Assembly (NCBI GenBank): GCA_017962235.1
Contig: JAGCVS010000013.1
Location: 54,418-118,417, forward strand
DNA: 64,000 nt
Direction of reading: 5' to 3'
Source: Bacteroidales bacterium
Lineage (GTDB): Bacteria; Bacteroidota; Bacteroidia; Bacteroidales; UBA932
This document shows, one piece after another, positions 55,244 to 63,272 of the stretch. Both the position numbers and the translations under genes were made by a program. The first letter of the stretch is position 1, and the number at the start of each line of letters is the position of its first letter. The notes below the pieces were generated by a model. The model did not search any database, was not told the DNA's origin, and saw only the letters and a list, made by a program, of their open reading frames with translations.

Positions 55244-55251
55244 TATCTTTG
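55244..55251 (+). promoter_or_regulatory. Candidate -7 promoter box (TATCTTTG) for the glycyl radical enzyme gene
   Basis: Matches TAnnTTTG and ends 4 nt before the first ATG (55256). This implies translation more likely starts at Met11 (55286). Confidence 0.4.
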
Positions 55252-55255
55252 TAAC

Positions 55256-57520
55256 ATGAAACAGAATACGCACACCGGCGGGAAGATGTCCCGTGCCGAT
55301 TTTTTGAAATACTCTACATACGGGCTCGGAGGGTTGTTCCTAGGTCTCAAGGTGTCGGAGCTGGATGCAGCTGAGAGCAGTCCGGCGCCCCGTACGGCGG
55401 CAAAAGAGCTGTACGAGAGCTGGAAGTCTCCATGGCAGCCGGAGGTACCGCAGCGCCTTAGCAAGATTACGCACGAGCTGGCGTGGAAGGGACTTTCCGG
55501 AGAGAACGGCCGCACCATGAAAATGGTGGACTGGAACCCGCAGATAGACCCCGCCCTGCCGCCGCAGATGAAATATGCCGCCGCAGCCAAGAGCATTGCA
55601 GAGAACGCCCCGCTGCGCATCCTCCCCGGCGAGCTGATAGTTGGCTCCGCAACCCTGCTGGAGGCCATGCACGAGAGGATTCCCATTCTGTTATCCCAAA
55701 GCGTGACCCATACAACACTCGATTTTGAGCGCATCCTCCCACTGGGCTATAACGGCCTCAGGAAGCAGATACGCGAGCGTCTGGCAGCCGGTACCCTGGA
55801 TGAGAAAGGTCGCGAACTGAACGAAGCGGCTTTGCTCACCCTGGATGCAGCCGATATCTGGCAGCAGCGCAACATCGCCCTGCTGGAGCAGATGATGGGC
55901 GGGCAGCCGGCAGAAGGCAAGGCCTTTTACCAGACCATCATAGATACCCTCAAACGCGTCCCGGACGAGGCGCCGCGCTCTTTCCGCGAGGCGGTGCAGT
56001 CACTCTGGAGCATGTATGCCTTCCTCCGCCTGATGGGTGACTGGTCCGGCATAGGCCGCATAGACCGCATGCTGGGTCCCTACCTCAAGGAAGACCTCCG
56101 CAAAGGGGTGCTAACCCTGGACGAGGCCCGCGAAATCCTGGCTCACTTCTGGATCAAGGGCACCGAGTGGATTGGCGGTTTTTACGTGAACAGCGGCGAT
56201 GCCCAGTTCTACCAGAACATAATCCTGGGCGGCATAGACAAAGACGGCAAGGAGGTTACCAATGAAGTGACCTATCTGGTGCTGGATATAGTAGAAGAGC
56301 TGCATATCAGCGACTTCCCTATAGCTGTCCGCCTCGGCGACAAGACCCCGGAGAAACTTATCCGCAGGATTGCGGAGGTGCAGCGCTTTGGCGGCGGCAT
56401 AGTCTCCGTATACAGCGAGAACATCGTGATAGAGGGTCTGGTGAAATTCGGCTATCCTCTGGAAGAGGCGCGCGAATTCACCAACGACGGCTGCTGGGAG
56501 GCAATCATCCCCGGCAAGACCGCTTTCACATACGCCGCCAACGATATGCTGGAGGTGTTTGGCAAGACCCTCCATCTGAACGATGAAACTCCGGTGGATT
56601 TCCCCGACTTTGAGAGCCTCTACGCCGCATTCAAGAAGAACCTTGAAGCCGATGTGGATGTATGGCAGGGGATAATAGACCCCTGGTGGAAGGATGTGGA
56701 CGCACCCTGCACGCTGCCCTCCATCTTCACCTACGGCTGTCTGGAGAAGGGACGCTGCTTCCGCGGCGGCGGTCCCAAATACAACATGATAGGCATCCAC
56801 TACGGCGGCGTTTCCGATACCGCCAACAGCCTGCTGGTGCTCAAGAAGCTCGTATATGAAGAGGGCTACCTGTCGCTGGGCGACTTTGTGGGCATCCTCC
56901 GCAAGAACTGGGAGGGGAACGAAGGGCTCCGCCAGCTCATCCGCACCCGCTTCACCTTCTACGGCAACGACGATGCTGCCGCAGACGCCATGATGAACCG
57001 CGTTTACAACGATTACACAGAAATCGTGGGCCGCTGCAAAGACCGTGAAGGGGTCAAGAGGCCGTGCGGCATATCCACCTTTGGCCGTGAGATTGACTGG
57101 CGCATGCAGCGCCGCGCTACCCCGGAGGGGAGCCGCATAGGCGATATCCTGGCCACCAACTGCTCTCCCACACCCGGCAGCGACCGCAAGGGCCCCACAT
57201 CGGCCCTGAACTCATACTGCAAGCTGGATTTCACCCGCTGCCCCAGCGGCGCGACCCTGGAGCTCAAGGTGCTGCCCTCTTCCGTGAAAGGGGAGAACGG
57301 CGTAAAGGCGCTCATGGGCCTGCTCAAGACCTTCCGCGAGAAGAAGGGATTCTACATGCACGTGGACGTGGTGGACACCGCCACCCTGATAGACGCGCAG
57401 CGCAATCCGGAGAAGTACCCCAACCTGCCGGTACGTGTGGCGGGCTGGAGCGCACGCTTCACCACACTGTGCAAGGAGTGGCAGGATATGATTATCCAGC
57501 GCACCCAGCAAATCTGCTAA
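55256..57520 (+). CDS. Glycyl radical enzyme, PFL2/dehydratase-lyase clade, unknown substrate (alternative start 55286)
   Basis: 754 aa. Glycyl radical motif RVAGWS (Gly730, nt 57443-57445). Thiyl loop NDGCWE (Cys413, nt 56492-56494, Cys-x-Glu). N-terminus MSRADFLKYSTYGLGGLFLGL resembles a Tat leader. Confidence 0.9.
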   Translation: MKQNTHTGGKMSRADFLKYSTYGLGGLFLGLKVSELDAAESSPAPRTAAKELYESWKSPWQPEVPQRLSKITHELAWKGLSGENGRTMKMVDWNPQIDPALPPQMKYAAAAKSIAENAPLRILPGELIVGSATLLEAMHERIPILLSQSVTHTTLDFERILPLGYNGLRKQIRERLAAGTLDEKGRELNEAALLTLDAADIWQQRNIALLEQMMGGQPAEGKAFYQTIIDTLKRVPDEAPRSFREAVQSLWSMYAFLRLMGDWSGIGRIDRMLGPYLKEDLRKGVLTLDEAREILAHFWIKGTEWIGGFYVNSGDAQFYQNIILGGIDKDGKEVTNEVTYLVLDIVEELHISDFPIAVRLGDKTPEKLIRRIAEVQRFGGGIVSVYSENIVIEGLVKFGYPLEEAREFTNDGCWEAIIPGKTAFTYAANDMLEVFGKTLHLNDETPVDFPDFESLYAAFKKNLEADVDVWQGIIDPWWKDVDAPCTLPSIFTYGCLEKGRCFRGGGPKYNMIGIHYGGVSDTANSLLVLKKLVYEEGYLSLGDFVGILRKNWEGNEGLRQLIRTRFTFYGNDDAAADAMMNRVYNDYTEIVGRCKDREGVKRPCGISTFGREIDWRMQRRATPEGSRIGDILATNCSPTPGSDRKGPTSALNSYCKLDFTRCPSGATLELKVLPSSVKGENGVKALMGLLKTFREKKGFYMHVDVVDTATLIDAQRNPEKYPNLPVRVAGWSARFTTLCKEWQDMIIQRTQQIC

Positions 57521-57527
57521 AACGATT

Positions 57528-58400
57528 CTAAGCTATACCGATTCTGCGGGCAAAGGCCTCCGTTTCTGAGGCGCTTGGCTCGCGGAATCTTTTTTCTGCC
57601 AGCCCCAGCTTCTCCCGCTTGGCGTTGCCCAGAAGATGATACGGGATTACCTCCGCGCTGTACTGCGGATACTTCTGAAGTAGGGCGGCGGTGGATTCTG
57701 CGATGCCATCTGTGCAGTGGATTTCCGGTACGAAAAGCACGCGGAATCGGATCTGTGCGCCGGTGGCGGCCACGGCGTTGAGGTTATCCAGCATGGTGTC
57801 CAGGTCGCCGCCCGTGTACTGCCTATACAGAGTCGGCTCCATCAGCTTGATGTCCCATAGCCAGAGGTTCACGTAGGGGGCCGCGGCCAGAAAATCCTCT
57901 TTGCGGCCGTTGCCGGAGGTCTCCACGGCGGTGTGCAGTCCGCGCTCAGTGGCCTGTCGCAGCAGTTCCCGGCAGAAGGGCGGCTGCGCCATAGGCTCGC
58001 CGCCGGAGAGCGTCATCCCGCCGCCGGAATTGCGGTAATACGCCTCGTCCTGCATCACCTCTTCCAGAATCTCATCTGTGCCGACGCGGCGGCCCGCCAC
58101 CTCCAGGCAGAGGGTGGGGCAGGCGTCGGCGCACAGCCGGCAACCGGGCGGGCAGGTGGCCTTCCGTGCACCGGCATCGGCCAGAATCGTCTTGGGAGAA
58201 CCCTTGCCGCAGGTGGCATCGCACGCCCCGCAGCCTATGCAGCGCTGTGTGTTCAGCAGAATCTCAGGGGCGAAACACTGCGATTCTGGGTTGTGACACC
58301 ACTCGCAAAGCAGGGTGCACCCCTTCAGGAACACCGTGGTGCGTATCCCCGGCCCGTCCCCGGTACAAAAATGCTGAATGTCAAAAATCCCGCCTTCCAT
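57528..58400 (-). CDS. Glycyl-radical enzyme activating protein (radical SAM)
   Basis: 290 aa. CTLLCEWC (CxxxCxxC) radical-SAM cluster site preceded by GDGPGIRTTVFLKGC. Two ferredoxin-like cysteine clusters, CIGCGACDATC and CRLCADACP. Confidence 0.9.
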   Translation of the reverse strand: MEGGIFDIQHFCTGDGPGIRTTVFLKGCTLLCEWCHNPESQCFAPEILLNTQRCIGCGACDATCGKGSPKTILADAGARKATCPPGCRLCADACPTLCLEVAGRRVGTDEILEEVMQDEAYYRNSGGGMTLSGGEPMAQPPFCRELLRQATERGLHTAVETSGNGRKEDFLAAAPYVNLWLWDIKLMEPTLYRQYTGGDLDTMLDNLNAVAATGAQIRFRVLFVPEIHCTDGIAESTAALLQKYPQYSAEVIPYHLLGNAKREKLGLAEKRFREPSASETEAFARRIGIA

Positions 58401-58407
58401 GCAGTGT

Positions 58408-61400
58408 TTACCGGTGTCTGGGGGAGAAACCGCCGGCGGTTACGCCAAAGAGGCCGCCGCTGTTGTAGGTGGCCAGCATCTTGCGTTTCTGGATGCGGCC
58501 TGCCTGATGAATCTCGTCTGTGAGCTTAAATACGCCGTTGAAGTCGGTAGAGCGGCTCTTGATATTGCGCTGGTGGAGGTTGCCCGCACCATCGCGGACC
58601 CATCCGCCGTGCTTCTGGCTCTCTGTTGTCTCAATCAGCTTGCCCTGCCGTGCCTTCATGGCGATATCCAGCGGCTTTGCAATCTTGAGCGCCTTGCCCA
58701 GTTCGCCGTATCCGGCATAATCCAGAGTGGTTTCTATGACACCTTTTATGGACAGATTGGAATTGATGTGGCCCAGCACATTATCCAGGAAGCCCTTGAT
58801 TGCTCCTGCATCCGGTCCGGTGGTCTTAACAGGTTTGCCGGTAATCTGGCTTTCATAATCGGCCCATACTTTCTCCAAATACTTGGTTTCGGTGTCCAGG
58901 TCCATACCCAGTTGGCCGTCTACCAGGCCGATGCGGAGAGTGCCGGAGGGCAGGTTGATGTCAAGCGTAAGGTCGCTGAGTCCGCCGATGGCGTTCTGGG
59001 GGAACTCTTTCTCGTCGCGGGCGTCAAATTTTGCCTGATAATACTCATTTGCAGCCGCATTTGCATCGTGCCATGCTTCATTCTTTATCTGCGCTTCTGC
59101 CTTGAGAATATTCTGCCGGGTCTGCCAGAGGCTTTCTCCTTCACGGGCCTTGGATGAAAAAGTGGCACAGTATTCCCCGTATATGTCGGAGAGGGTGCGG
59201 AACCAGAAGAACTTTGCAATAATGGGGTCATGGCAGTATAGAGCAAGCCTGGATACATCTGCCCACCACTCTACCAGAATGGGCCGCATGGTATTATTGT
59301 AGTAATCCATATAGTGGGTCTCCTCTTCCGTGGCCTGCGGAACGGAGATATTATCCAGCACCTCGGTGGGTTGTGTCACGCTGGTAAGGATGCGATAGGG
59401 GCGGAGAATCCTCCTTTCAGCCCTTGCATATGCAGAATCGGATGCGTTGGGGTGGTCATTGCACCATTTGTCTAATTCATTGGCGCACTTCTTGGCTAAT
59501 GCCGTGCCCTCTTTCTCGTGGCGCTTTTGCATGGCCTCGCCAATATCATTGAACTTTTTATGGGTAGCCACATCTGCAGATATCCACGATTTCCAGCCGG
59601 AGCAGAGCACGCCGTGGAAGGTATTCGTCTCCTCGTCGTAATCGCCAAAACCGTTGGATATGGCGTCCAGACGGTACTTGTAATAGCGCTCCAGCGCCCA
59701 AAGGCACCAGAATGCGCGGTCGTCCGGGATATAGAAGCCGTCCACACCATACTTCATTCCCAGAACTGAGGTAAACTTGGCATATCCGTCTTTAGCTAAA
59801 GATTCCAGGCCGGCGGGGAGGCTCATATTTGCCGCTGTCGCCCGTGCGCGCGCGTTCCCGCTCACGCTGGGGAGAGCCCGGGCCGTTTCGTAGATTTTAT
59901 CTGCATTGCCCGGCAGGCCGCTGAGTCCCATGGCCATAATCAGCCCCACGCTGAAAGAACCGTCCTGGGCCGCCTCTGCCTTATTCCATGCTGCTTCGCT
60001 TTTATTTGCATACTGCTCTGCCAGATTCTTGTTCAGCCGCCAGCTACTTTCCAGATTACCGGCGCCGGTAGCCAGGAAGTCGGCCTTCTCGCTCTCGAAT
60101 TTCTCCGTACGGCTCCAGGTGATGCCCTTGCGGAGGTTGTCCAGATTCTCTTTGGTGAACACAGATTCCACCAGATTCAAGAAGTCACCGTCGCGCTCTG
60201 AGGCGGCCAGTTCCGCCGCGTCAAGCTCTGCAAGCAGTGAGCTGAGCAGCAGCGCTGAATTCTCGTCAAAATAGCCATAAGCGAGCGATTGGAACAGATA
60301 GTCGGCCGCCTTGAAGGGGCTGTCGTTCTTATCCTCCAGCATAGCCCGGTAAAGCCATGCGCGGCCGTCCTGCAGGCCGTTCGGGGTCATCTCCAGAATC
60401 TTGGGAACAATCTTGCGGGCCTTTTCCACGTTGCCCATGTCCAGATGGCACTCGATCTGCCCGTACAGGGCGTCGGCATAGTCGGGCTGATATTCTGAGG
60501 ATTTCTCAAAATACTCCAGCGCATATTTGGGGTCGCCCAGCTCCAGCAGCAACGTGCCGGTGGTGTTCAGCATGGTGGGGTGGGGATACACGCTGCAGCG
60601 GGCAATGGCGCTCTCTGCCAGTTCGCCCGTCACGGCGCCGGTGAAAATTGCCCAGCCCACGCTGTCGGCGTAGTTGACCACATCGCGCTGTACCTGTTCT
60701 GCAGTCTTGCCCTTGCACTGTGCGAGAAACTGCTCCAGCGCCAGTTTTACGCCCTCCTGGGTGATATTCTTGTCTGTGCGTAACTTCTTTTGCTGCTTTG
60801 CCGGCTTCATGGCCGATGCCAGCACGGGGGCGCTGACGCTCTGCCGGCCGGTGATGGCGATATTCTGCATAGCACTGCCGCAGGCAAGTTCTTCCTGCGT
60901 GCCGGTGTCGGTCCAGGGCTTGGAACATTTGGGCGGAGCGGGGTAGAGCGACTTCTTTACCTGTCCAGCTTTGCTCTTTGCGGCCCCCATGCCCATCTGG
61001 CTCATAGCCATGTTTACCAGATCGTCTACACTCATCCCTTCCGGGAGTTCCTGCCCCTTCATGCTTTCGCGGATCTGCTTCTCCATTGCAGAGCGGTCTA
61101 TTCCGGCCATAGCCATGGGGTCCGTGTTGCCAACTCCCATGCCGGGCACTGACCCTGCCGAACCCTCCTTCCAGTCGTTGCCAACGCAGAAGAACATGTT
61201 ATTTGGGATAAAAGTGCTGAAAGATATCAGACTCATAGGGCCGAGGTCCTCGCCGTCGGAAGCACCCAGGTCAATGATGGAAACCTTGTCTGAGTTGTAG
61301 TAGAAGGTTATGGTATTGCCATCGGCGGTGTACTCGTCAAAGTACCAGCCCTCTTCTCCGTTGATATTGCAAGTGCCCTGGCGCACAAATTTCAGGCGGT

Positions 61401-61737
61401 CAAAAGATGGTGCGCCGCTGCCGCCGGGCCGTGCCGACCAGGTCTTGGAGGCCTCGTCCAGCATATAGGTGGCCTGCGGAGTGGTGAGCGTGACGCCGTC
61501 CATCATCTGCGTATGGGTGCGGCTCATGGACACTCCGCCGCGGCTTGCAACCTCCACGGAAATCTGCATCTTGTCCCGCTGAAGGTCGGTGTCGGAGATG
61601 GACTGAACGGAGCTGAGCTTCATGTAAAACTTGCCACCCTCCATGGCCTTGACCAGCGTGGTGGAGACGTATGCTCCCTGAGCAAAAGCGGCGGCGCCCG
61701 AAAGGAGCGCAGCCGCTATTATCATAATTCGTTTCAT
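58408..61737 (-). CDS. Large secreted hypothetical protein (1109 aa) with a central TPR-like region
   Basis: Signal peptide MKRIMIIAAALLSGAAAFAQG. TPR-like helices around LELGDPKYALEYFEKSSEYQPDYADALYGQIECHLDMGNVEKARKI. No catalytic motif or known family recognised. Confidence 0.7.
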   Translation of the reverse strand: MKRIMIIAAALLSGAAAFAQGAYVSTTLVKAMEGGKFYMKLSSVQSISDTDLQRDKMQISVEVASRGGVSMSRTHTQMMDGVTLTTPQATYMLDEASKTWSARPGGSGAPSFDRLKFVRQGTCNINGEEGWYFDEYTADGNTITFYYNSDKVSIIDLGASDGEDLGPMSLISFSTFIPNNMFFCVGNDWKEGSAGSVPGMGVGNTDPMAMAGIDRSAMEKQIRESMKGQELPEGMSVDDLVNMAMSQMGMGAAKSKAGQVKKSLYPAPPKCSKPWTDTGTQEELACGSAMQNIAITGRQSVSAPVLASAMKPAKQQKKLRTDKNITQEGVKLALEQFLAQCKGKTAEQVQRDVVNYADSVGWAIFTGAVTGELAESAIARCSVYPHPTMLNTTGTLLLELGDPKYALEYFEKSSEYQPDYADALYGQIECHLDMGNVEKARKIVPKILEMTPNGLQDGRAWLYRAMLEDKNDSPFKAADYLFQSLAYGYFDENSALLLSSLLAELDAAELAASERDGDFLNLVESVFTKENLDNLRKGITWSRTEKFESEKADFLATGAGNLESSWRLNKNLAEQYANKSEAAWNKAEAAQDGSFSVGLIMAMGLSGLPGNADKIYETARALPSVSGNARARATAANMSLPAGLESLAKDGYAKFTSVLGMKYGVDGFYIPDDRAFWCLWALERYYKYRLDAISNGFGDYDEETNTFHGVLCSGWKSWISADVATHKKFNDIGEAMQKRHEKEGTALAKKCANELDKWCNDHPNASDSAYARAERRILRPYRILTSVTQPTEVLDNISVPQATEEETHYMDYYNNTMRPILVEWWADVSRLALYCHDPIIAKFFWFRTLSDIYGEYCATFSSKAREGESLWQTRQNILKAEAQIKNEAWHDANAAANEYYQAKFDARDEKEFPQNAIGGLSDLTLDINLPSGTLRIGLVDGQLGMDLDTETKYLEKVWADYESQITGKPVKTTGPDAGAIKGFLDNVLGHINSNLSIKGVIETTLDYAGYGELGKALKIAKPLDIAMKARQGKLIETTESQKHGGWVRDGAGNLHQRNIKSRSTDFNGVFKLTDEIHQAGRIQKRKMLATYNSGGLFGVTAGGFSPRHR

Positions 61738-61743
61738 GTACGG

Positions 61744-63138
61744 TTATTTCTTTACGAACTCTACGCGGCGGTTCTTTGCGCGACCCTCATCGGTGTTGTT
61801 GTCTGCGATAGGGACGTGGGAACCTTTACCAACGGCAGTGAGGCGCTCTTTGGCGATGCCCTGCTCTACCAGGGCGGCAACGATGGCCTCTGCGCGCTTC
61901 TGGCTCAGCGGATCGTTCACCTTATCTGAGCCTGTGGAATCGCAGTGACCCTGCACCTCGAACTTGAGGGACGAATCGTCTTTCATAAGCTTGGCGATGC
62001 GGTTAATCTCTACCATAGATTCGGGCTTGAGATCTGCCTTGCCGGTCTCAAAGGTTATGGCATAGGTCACAATCTTGCCGTCTGAAGCAAGGCGGTCGTA
62101 CAGAGGCACTGCGCCCTTGGCAATGCGGACGTTGGAGATGCAGCCAAACTTGTAGGCGCCCTGGTGAACGAACCAGAAATGGGAAGGTACCTTGGCGTTG
62201 GGGATATTGATTACCCTCATCCCGTTCACATAACCTTTAAAAGCGCGCTTGTTGAAGGAGAATGCGATGTGATTCCATGCATTGTCTTTCAAAGGAGTGT
62301 TGGGCGAATCCAGATACATGTCCTTTTCTCCGAAGATATCATCTCCGCCGTTGGGCTTCTGGGCAGTCCAGTGCATGGAGGCGCCTCCATCCGTTGCCCG
62401 GAACCATAAAGCCCCATAAATTACCCTTCCATTCCAGTTGGGAAGGTCCGGATTTCCGAAAGCAAACTCCAGTGAGCTGTCGTTGAAACCATCCCCTTCT
62501 CCAGTTTCCAGGTAAACGTCAAATTCGAGCGTAAACACATCCGGCAGGAAGTGTTGCTGGTCCTTCATCAGAGGCTGGATTTCTGCGTATCCATCGTCCG
62601 TGAAGGCAATCACCTTGCGGCCGTTGATGGAACCCACCTCTGCATAACCGCCCATCAGATCCCACTGGGAGGGGAACTCGCCCAGCTTTTCGCCAGAGAA
62701 GTCATCGTCAAAGATAATCTCATCTCCAGGGACAAAGTCGCTCTTGGCATATGCGGATTCCGCTTGCTTCTTGGGAGCAGCAGCCTTCTTCTCCGGCTTC
62801 TCTGCCTTTGCGGGAGCAGCTTCTTCTTCACCTTCAGCTGCGGGGCGCTTTGTGCCGCACTCCTCGCAGAACTTGCCGGTGTTCTCTGCACCGCATTCAG
62901 GGCATGTCCAGGTAGCATCGTTCTTCTCTTCTTCCTGGTCTTTCTGCTTCTTGTTCTTCTTTATCTTCTTGTTGAAGACACCGTCTATGGCATCGTTCAC
63001 GCCCTGTTCAACCTTGTTGCCCACGTTGCTTTCCATAGCATCCTTGGCCCTGTCGCCAAGCCTCTGCAGGAGGCCCTGGGCGCTTGCACTGCCGCCCAGC
63101 ATAGCCAGCACGGCGATTGACATAAGAAATCTTTTCAT
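61744..63138 (-). CDS. OmpA-family protein with signal peptide, zinc ribbon, charged linker and LamG-like domain
   Basis: Start placed at ATG 63136-63138 (MKRFLMSIAVLAMLGGSASAQ). Zinc ribbon WTCPECGAENTGKFCEECG, an E/K/A/P-rich linker, and a jelly-roll-like middle (NAWNHIAFSFNKRAFKGYVNG). OmpA_C end: LSQKRAEAIVAALVEQGI...NRRVEFVKK. Confidence 0.8.
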   Translation of the reverse strand: MKRFLMSIAVLAMLGGSASAQGLLQRLGDRAKDAMESNVGNKVEQGVNDAIDGVFNKKIKKNKKQKDQEEEKNDATWTCPECGAENTGKFCEECGTKRPAAEGEEEAAPAKAEKPEKKAAAPKKQAESAYAKSDFVPGDEIIFDDDFSGEKLGEFPSQWDLMGGYAEVGSINGRKVIAFTDDGYAEIQPLMKDQQHFLPDVFTLEFDVYLETGEGDGFNDSSLEFAFGNPDLPNWNGRVIYGALWFRATDGGASMHWTAQKPNGGDDIFGEKDMYLDSPNTPLKDNAWNHIAFSFNKRAFKGYVNGMRVINIPNAKVPSHFWFVHQGAYKFGCISNVRIAKGAVPLYDRLASDGKIVTYAITFETGKADLKPESMVEINRIAKLMKDDSSLKFEVQGHCDSTGSDKVNDPLSQKRAEAIVAALVEQGIAKERLTAVGKGSHVPIADNNTDEGRAKNRRVEFVKK

Positions 63139-63181: not shown

Positions 63182-63200
63182 CAAAATTAAGCCAAAAATA
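63182..63200 (-). promoter_or_regulatory. Two candidate minus-strand -7 boxes (TAATTTTG, TATTTTTG) for the ompA-like operon
   Basis: The plus strand reads caaaatta (63182-63189) and caaaaata (63193-63200), 44-62 nt upstream of ATG 63138. Confidence 0.3.
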
Positions 63201-63259: not shown

Positions 63260-63272
63260 TTTTTTTTTTTTT
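63260..63272. repeat. Homopolymeric T13 (A13 on the minus strand) tract in a divergent intergenic region
   Basis: Read directly as gggtc-ttttttttttttt-c-ttttt. It lies between the ompA-like operon and the DUF3575 gene. Confidence 0.9.

Follow-up and report, generated by a model that had tools for sequence, protein, structure and literature searches.

A glycyl radical enzyme (GRE) and its activating radical S-adenosylmethionine (SAM) enzyme were found to be encoded tail to tail in a 64-kb stretch of DNA from a Bacteroidales bacterium (contig JAGCVS010000013.1; this whole stretch of 64,000 nucleotides is called the window below). The activase gene is also the last member of a compact minus-strand string that begins with two genes of envelope proteins, an OmpA-like protein and a secreted protein of 1109 amino acids (aa). 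Based on the comparison of related loci, it was concluded with a probability of about 0.7 that two unrelated units were juxtaposed by a rearrangement in this organism only, and that the activase hitch-hikes on the envelope operon without functional coupling to it.

According to the proposed scenario, the first unit would be the convergent GRE/activase pair, which a clade of rumen and gut Bacteroidales has retained, and the second an operon of OmpA/LamG-type and giant tetratricopeptide repeat (TPR) envelope proteins, which is found without the activase in other genomes. The second unit would have come to lie directly upstream of the activase through a rearrangement that broke at the start codon of the latter. 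Because no promoter box was found for the activase itself, it would be produced by read-through from the promoter of the OmpA-like gene (transcriptional hitch-hiking), thus being carried by an unrelated operon, much as it follows priA and other genes in the sister genomes. The GRE would be transcribed from its own promoter, and its transcript would end at a hairpin and U-tract inside the 3' end of the activase gene. The minus-strand transcript, for which no recognisable intrinsic terminator was found, would continue antisense into the 3' end of the GRE gene.

Gene organization of the locus

The coordinates and gaps reported in the initial annotation of this DNA were all confirmed by open reading frame (ORF) listing and by direct reading. 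The GRE gene was located at 55256-57520 on the plus strand, with its stop codon at 57518-57520. The minus-strand string starts with the OmpA-like gene for an OmpA/LamG-type envelope protein (61744-63138), continues with the 1109-aa gene (58408-61737), in whose product a single TPR_19 stretch (aa 394-453) was the only domain detected, and ends with the gene of the GRE-activating radical SAM enzyme (57528-58400), which carries a CX3CX2C motif and a ferredoxin-like insert. Read on the minus strand, the stop codon of the OmpA-like gene is followed by the 1109-aa start codon after 6 nt (TAA-ccgtac-ATG), and the stop codon of the latter by the activase start codon after 7 nt (TAA-acactgc-ATG). The convergent stop codons of the GRE and the activase are also separated by 7 nt.

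Such distances were common in the window. The gaps of its nine convergent gene pairs were 456, 695, 75, 21, -4, 3, 14, 0 and 7 nt, hence six of the nine pairs were spaced by 21 nt or less from stop to stop, and the commonest class of same-strand gaps was 7 nt or less. Judged from these values, the genome is very compact. The 7-nt convergent gap was therefore ordinary, and since short gaps are routine across the window, tight spacing by itself says little about this locus.

Comparison of related loci

Relatives of the GRE were collected by scanning one genome per species with an alignment of the GRE. This yielded 380 relatives, and 80 loci (L003-L082) were kept. The proteins of the window were compared by tblastn with these loci and with L001 and L002, two contigs of the same organism carrying an identical GRE. 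The closest GRE relatives were derived from metagenome-assembled genomes (MAGs) of goat, sheep and buffalo rumen, and the identical GRE protein is attributed to a Bacteroidales MAG in a public database.

Genes for the 1109-aa and OmpA-like proteins were present only in L001 and L002 and were detected in none of the 78 other GRE loci. In L003, where the GRE and the activase were 89% and 82% identical to those of the window, respectively, both envelope genes were absent within 10 kb and the activase stood alone beside a divergent LolA-like gene. When the 5' ends of the window and L003 activase genes were aligned, the homology stopped at the start codon. Conversely, neither a radical SAM gene nor a GRE gene was found in the nine loci that contained relatives of the 1109-aa protein. 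The initial annotation had suggested that the GRE, the activase and the two envelope proteins form an envelope-associated module, and had pointed to gene-neighbourhood analysis as a check; the linkage proved to be absent from the relatives when approached from either side.

The association of the GRE with the activase was conserved. After an all-against-all clustering of 829 neighbouring ORFs, the activase was the sole recurrent partner of the GRE. A convergent activase gene directly followed the GRE gene in 12 loci (L003-L008, L018, L022-L024, L027 and L039). The junction measured about -29 to +17 nt in eight of these 12, and gaps of 165-315 nt were recorded in L006, L007 and L023; in L009, a convergent activase was located ~1.2 kb downstream of the GRE. 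More distant relatives showed the usual co-directional order, GRE then activase. The activases of the convergent loci were 54-82% identical to that of the window, compared with 41-51% for the co-directional loci, which suggests that the convergent order arose by a single inversion in the ancestor of the clade.

The genes upstream of the convergent activase varied. A PriA helicase gene preceded it with a 1-nt gap or an overlap in three loci (L007, 5207-8093; L008, 11405-14280; L039, 1446-4347), RhaM in L005, aminotransferases in L004, L022 and L023, and a phosphodiesterase in L018, while L003 and L006 had a divergent intergenic region and no same-strand gene at this place. The genes upstream of the GRE were variable as well (cytochrome bd, rhamnosidase, arabinofuranosidase, Omp28, ThrC, DHQ synthase and MutS). 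A transporter gene of the MFS type, divergent from the GRE, was examined as a further conserved partner and rejected because, outside the same organism, it occurred only in L003, 3 kb away. The GRE and activase genes both had a G+C content at third codon positions of 0.76, slightly apart from the envelope genes with 0.69 and 0.645.

Probable promoter of the minus-strand string

The promoters were searched for by using the Bacteroidetes -7 box TAnnTTTG, of which each strand of the window had only 13 copies. A sigma-70 promoter scan gave weak matches only and was set aside, as its consensus is unsuited to Bacteroidetes. Two overlapping -7 boxes, TATTTTTG and TAATTTTG, were found at 63182-63200 on the minus strand with a TTTG further upstream, and likely constitute the promoter of the three-gene string. 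They were placed at 63200 and 63189, i.e., at -62 and -51 relative to the ATG of the OmpA-like gene (63138). The third minus-strand copy between 57000 and 64000 lies inside the OmpA-like gene at 62716. The intergenic region upstream of the two boxes is AT-rich (33% G+C) and contains a 13-base homopolymer at 63260-63272 (T13 on the plus strand, A13 on the minus strand).

In the 300 nt preceding the start codons of the 1109-aa gene and of the activase gene, TAnnTTTG was absent, even when one mismatch was allowed. The hairpin/T-run scan revealed no strong hairpin with a T-run between the three genes; a G+C-rich hairpin of moderate stability (dG -21.9) followed by TTTTGCT was recorded at ~61640-61690 on the minus strand, ~50 nt into the 1109-aa gene, among its signal-peptide codons. 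Given the gaps of 6 and 7 nt, the lack of a box near the internal start codons and the lack of a strong internal terminator, the most economical reading is that the OmpA-like, 1109-aa and activase genes form one transcription unit driven by the OmpA-like promoter. The initial annotation had seen neither promoter nor terminator between these genes and had deduced that the activase is co-transcribed with the envelope genes. The former observation held when the Bacteroidetes motif was applied and, apart from the moderate hairpin, for terminators too; the latter deduction appears plausible from the gaps and the placement of the motifs.

The convergent junction

A terminator-like hairpin (57540-57589) followed by T6 (57590-57595) was identified on the plus strand, antisense to the last activase codons, by scanning for hairpins followed by T-runs; a simple terminator scan had missed it owing to its internal bulges. 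The hairpin had a dG of -26.7 kcal/mol over 60 nt (z = -2.2), and together with T6 it spanned 20-75 nt past the GRE stop codon. Equally strong sites numbered 14 in 128 kb, both strands of the window being counted. Thus, the elements of an intrinsic terminator, a G+C-rich hairpin with a U-tract directly after it and downstream of a stop codon, were all present at 57540-57595. The counterpart in L003 had a dG of -28.3 and the same +68 offset; its inner stem had diverged in sequence with the pairing kept.

It was proposed that the GRE transcript most likely ends at this hairpin and U-tract inside the 3' end of the activase gene. No terminator-like site was detected on the minus strand within 430 nt past the activase stop codon, and the minus-strand transcript probably extends in antisense orientation into the 3' part of the GRE gene or is stopped by other means. 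The earlier remark that the junction leaves no room for a terminator was correct for the 7-nt gap itself but missed the strong hairpin and T6 just beyond it. The accompanying suggestion of termination inside the partner gene was borne out for the GRE, whose candidate terminator lies in the 3' coding end of the activase here and in L003.

Alternative explanations

Both envelope proteins, the activase and the GRE with its leader might form one envelope-associated glycyl-radical system, in which case co-transcription would reflect a shared function. The 6- and 7-nt gaps with no promoter box close upstream of the internal starts, the signal peptides of both envelope proteins and the conserved export-type leader of the GRE (see below) are all consistent with such a system. 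It is nevertheless highly improbable: neither envelope gene lies within 10 kb in any of the 78 other GRE loci, all nine loci of the 1109-aa relatives lack both the activase and the GRE, the activase stands by itself in L003, the nearest relative whose gene context differs (89% identity of the GRE), and the Tat-type leader is family-wide without these envelope genes. The convergent junction could instead be regulatory, with antisense read-through of the envelope operon into the GRE 3' end, and of the GRE into that of the activase, tuning the ratio of enzyme to activase and so explaining why the tail-to-tail layout was kept. The narrow range of the junction in eight of the 12 adjacent convergent loci despite their variable flanks, the missing minus-strand terminator and the position of the GRE hairpin within the activase gene point in this direction. 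This explanation was considered improbable too, since tight convergent junctions are the norm of the window and need no special selection, and since the two genes are also convergent in L006, L007 and L023, where the gaps are much wider.

The same juxtaposition may also have left the activase to be expressed mainly from an unrecognised promoter in the 3' end of the 1109-aa gene, so that the compactness would not mean co-expression. Promoters inside upstream coding sequences are common in compact genomes, the activases of L006 and L024 have their own TAnnTTTG box near the ATG (at -15 and -13, respectively), and the hairpin early in the 1109-aa gene is a possible attenuator. However, the 300 nt upstream of the activase ATG contained no exact or one-mismatch box, and a sigma-70-type scan, although its consensus does not suit Bacteroidetes, was also blank there. 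In addition, the activase abuts the unrelated priA (1 nt) in L007, L008 and L039, which suggests that the clade tolerates read-through expression. An internal promoter as the main source of the activase was judged unlikely, though less so than the other two alternatives.

Several points weigh against the preferred scenario of an activase carried by an unrelated operon. The hairpin at ~61687 could attenuate the read-through from the OmpA-like gene, unless it is coincidental. A single consensus motif underlies the promoter assignment, and the 1109-aa gene may harbour weak promoters or promoters of alternative sigma factors. The T-run of the GRE terminator partly coincides with conserved activase codons (AEKRF), and the hairpin was absent from the less similar relatives L004 and L005. 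Finally, the non-conserved neighbourhood argues against an obligatory link, and a function acquired only in this lineage would still be compatible with it. On balance, the operon linkage itself probably has little biological meaning. In Bacteroidales genomes with such small gaps, compact spacing and probable co-transcription do not imply a shared function.

The N-terminal leader of the GRE

A -7 box, TATCTTTG, was located at 55244-55251 on the plus strand. It is the only plus-strand TAnnTTTG between 54000 and 58000 and was assigned as the GRE's own promoter. The box ends 4 nt before the first ATG (55256). Because it crowds this ATG, and because several GRE relatives begin at MSRADFLK, translation probably starts at the second ATG (55286). 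The following segment, 55286-55369 (plus strand), encodes a leader of the twin-arginine translocation (Tat) type, MSRADFLK-YSTYGLGGLFLGL-K-VSELDA/AE, where the slash marks an AxA-like site and R-A stands as a degenerate form in place of the twin arginine.

It is organized like a Tat signal (n/h/c), with a Gly/Ser-rich, weakly hydrophobic h-region (YSTYGLGGLFLGL), a lysine in the c-region and the AxA-like site LDA/A; the corresponding sites in the relatives were ADA/A, ANA/A, AGA/A and AEA/A. The window leader itself (S-R-A-D-F-L-K) lacks consecutive arginines and gave no match to TIGR01409. The cut-off of this model (16.7 bits) was passed by seven of nine relatives, and 24 of 54 leaders matched it at E<=0.01. 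The other NCBIfam models that matched the leaders were those of Tat leaders only (formate_TAT/formate dehydrogenase and DmsA/YnfE). The leader is translated and under selection, as 7-15 synonymous codon changes relative to the relatives were counted with the motif kept. In the AlphaFold2 model of the GRE, residues 1-58 had a confidence score (pLDDT) below 50 and the fold began at about residue 60. Therefore, the export-like leader described in the initial annotation was real, translated and conserved, and any link of the GRE to the envelope would stem from this Tat-type leader and not from the operon.

The 82 loci were divided by leader motif into 43 with R-R or R-K (about six of them R-K, and L054 and L059 possibly spurious matches), 15 in which A, S, G or E comes after a lone arginine (L001 and L002 among them), 22 leaderless and two truncated. 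RR leaders are present, for example, in L013 and L044, and an R-S leader in L010, the locus of the cultured Alistipes hominis. The R-R/R-K leaders occurred in Bacteroidota, Planctomycetota, Armatimonadota, Hydrogenedentota and Chthonomonadales, and the degenerate variants R-A, R-S, R-K and R-G dominated in gut and rumen Bacteroidales. When the 120 closest protein clusters were compared, the first arginine was followed by a second one in 31, by S in 31, by A in 27, by K in 10, by G in five and by E in one. Sister GRE clades at 39-51% identity had no leader. Two other functions of the segment were rejected: an encapsulation peptide of bacterial microcompartments on account of its form, as the signal layout matched Tat-leader models only, and a lipoprotein signal, as there was no lipobox. 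No other ORF with an RR leader was found in the window, which is uninformative as to a working Tat system.

It was tentatively proposed that the GRE clade is a Tat substrate, in which the radical would be installed in the cytoplasm and the folded, active enzyme exported, its site of action being the periplasm of glycan-degrading anaerobes (among them Bacteroidota, Planctomycetota, Armatimonadota and Hydrogenedentota). This hypothesis is possible rather than probable. Export would proceed via Tat rather than Sec because activation is only possible in the cytoplasm, on the folded enzyme. Export of the R-A variant of the window is less likely than that of the RR relatives, and the single-arginine leaders of gut and rumen Bacteroidales would be either still-functional variants or relics.

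The leaders of the relatives resemble those of Tat-exported enzymes that are matured in the cytoplasm (TorA, DmsA/YnfE, hydrogenase small subunits and formate dehydrogenase) in the motif S/T/N/D-R-R-x-F-[LIV]-[KR], the weakly hydrophobic h-region, the basic c-region and the AxA-like site. By analogy, the same logic of cytoplasmic maturation before the export of a folded protein may apply. In contrast to these enzymes, the matured group would be a protein glycyl radical and not a metal cofactor, clustering of the neighbours revealed no dedicated leader-binding chaperone gene conserved near the GRE loci, and the window leader has R-A in place of R-R and fails TIGR01409. A second parallel is NarG, the cytoplasm-facing nitrate reductase, whose vestigial Tat leader is used for chaperone binding in molybdenum-cofactor insertion. 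There, a degenerate twin-arginine motif is likewise retained on an enzyme. Unlike NarG, the GRE has no such chaperone partner in evidence, and the h-region and AxA-like site of its leader are intact.

No description of a Tat-targeted or periplasmic GRE was found in a full-text literature search. If the proposal is true, this would be the first extracytoplasmic glycyl radical enzyme. A leader that directs export would bring radical chemistry, activated in a SAM-dependent manner, into the periplasm, would change the presumed site of anaerobic C-O, C-N and C-S cleavage for substrates that are not imported, and would add a protein radical to the types of maturation accommodated by Tat.

Family assignment of the GRE and its activase

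The GRE contains both domains that define its superfamily, the PFL-like domain PF02901 (309.7 bits) and the Gly_radical domain PF01228 (84.4 bits). Its Cys loop, NDGCWE, was found in 72 of 74 family ORFs, and the RVxG motif, present here in the glycine motif RVAGWSARF, was missing in only three of the 74. A Cys loop of the form G-C-x-E, with Glu two residues after Cys, marks the eliminase/dehydratase GREs. By these motifs, the GRE of the window is assigned to the eliminase type. The best relatives of solved structure were diol and glycerol dehydratases and HypD, with propanediol dehydratase 5i2a at the top (269 bits); the identity to any solved GRE was only ~30%. None of the equivalog or subfamily cut-offs of NCBIfam (HypD, CutC, HpsG/HpfG, PFL, HPA and indoleacetate decarboxylase) was passed: the best score was 334.5 against a cut-off of 678.2 for the PFL2-3 subfamily, and the scores for HypD and CutC were 306.9 against 1100 and 243.3 against 1050, respectively. 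In a search of 1.8 billion representatives, the family was discrete, its members scoring 520-875 bits before a drop to ~380 or less. The activase scored 277.7 bits with TIGR02494 (cut-off 174.35), and its CX3CX2C motif was read in the translation as GCTLLCEWC.

The pair thus shares the PFL-like barrel, the Gly_radical domain, the C-x-E Cys loop (NDGCWE), the RVxGW motif and an adjacent TIGR02494-type activase with a ferredoxin-like insert with the canonical eliminase pairs, such as B12-independent glycerol dehydratase, 1,2-propanediol dehydratase (5i2a), HypD and CutC/CutD. It differs from them by the convergent position of the activase in the clade of the window and by the Tat-type N-terminal leader. 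This well-separated eliminase-type clade, widespread in anaerobic polysaccharide degraders, is worth following up, as are its conserved, clade-specific tail-to-tail layout and its leader.

The neighbouring genes were examined for a clue to the substrate, and this approach was abandoned, as they were heterogeneous (cytochrome bd, rhamnosidase, arabinofuranosidase, MutS, PriA, glycerol kinase and GH32) and gave no consistent signal. Sulfatase genes were observed beside the GRE in seven loci (L027, L030, L037, L040, L046, L053 and L061), some with a Tat signal of their own. In a Prolixibacteraceae MAG (L030, 9986-14667) and an Armatimonadota MAG (L061, 9779-14633), the GRE, activase and sulfatase genes were arranged on one strand with short gaps. 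This recurrence may indicate sulfated substrates or be due to chance; because these phyla encode very many sulfatases, it is too weak for a substrate assignment.

A further group of six loci from Chthonomonadales MAGs (L048, L050, L052, L056, L065 and L075) encoded RR-leader GREs with intact Cys and Gly motifs, and had no activase within the fetched flanks. The record of one of them, L052, is titled Chthonomonas calidirosea, a species described as aerobic, which would be surprising for an oxygen-sensitive enzyme.

The envelope proteins

The signal peptides of both envelope proteins were read directly, that of the OmpA-like protein being of the Sec type. The latter protein also contains a C-terminal OmpA peptidoglycan-binding domain (PF00691, 85.3 bits, aa 371-466) and a weak match to Laminin_G_3. 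The 1109-aa protein, called an orphan in the initial annotation, had homologues in 45 clusters at 27-99% identity, and a search of the PDB with it retrieved designed TPR proteins only.

In L088 and in L089-L091, an OmpA gene precedes the gene of a homologue of the 1109-aa protein (42% and 28% identity, respectively). These OmpA genes were full-length orthologues of the OmpA-like gene of the window (49% identity, E = 6e-150, and 43%, respectively). The gene order and strand in these Bacteroidales operons were the same as in the window. The differences lay in the genes that accompany the pair: WG_beta_rep, SHOCT and DUF4412-like genes and no radical SAM gene in L088-L091, as opposed to the activase in the downstream position in the window. 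The neighbourhoods of the 1109-aa homologues comprised OmpA/LamG, WG_beta_rep, SHOCT and other small genes, and the closest relatives (72-73% identity) had other neighbours.

It was also observed that, after its signal peptide, the OmpA-like protein carries a zinc-ribbon-like CxxC-x8-CxxC motif, WTCPECGAENTGKFCEECG (62854-62910, minus strand), inside a Lys/Glu-rich linker. Such a motif is odd for an exported protein; it was absent from the L089 orthologue and kept in that of L088.

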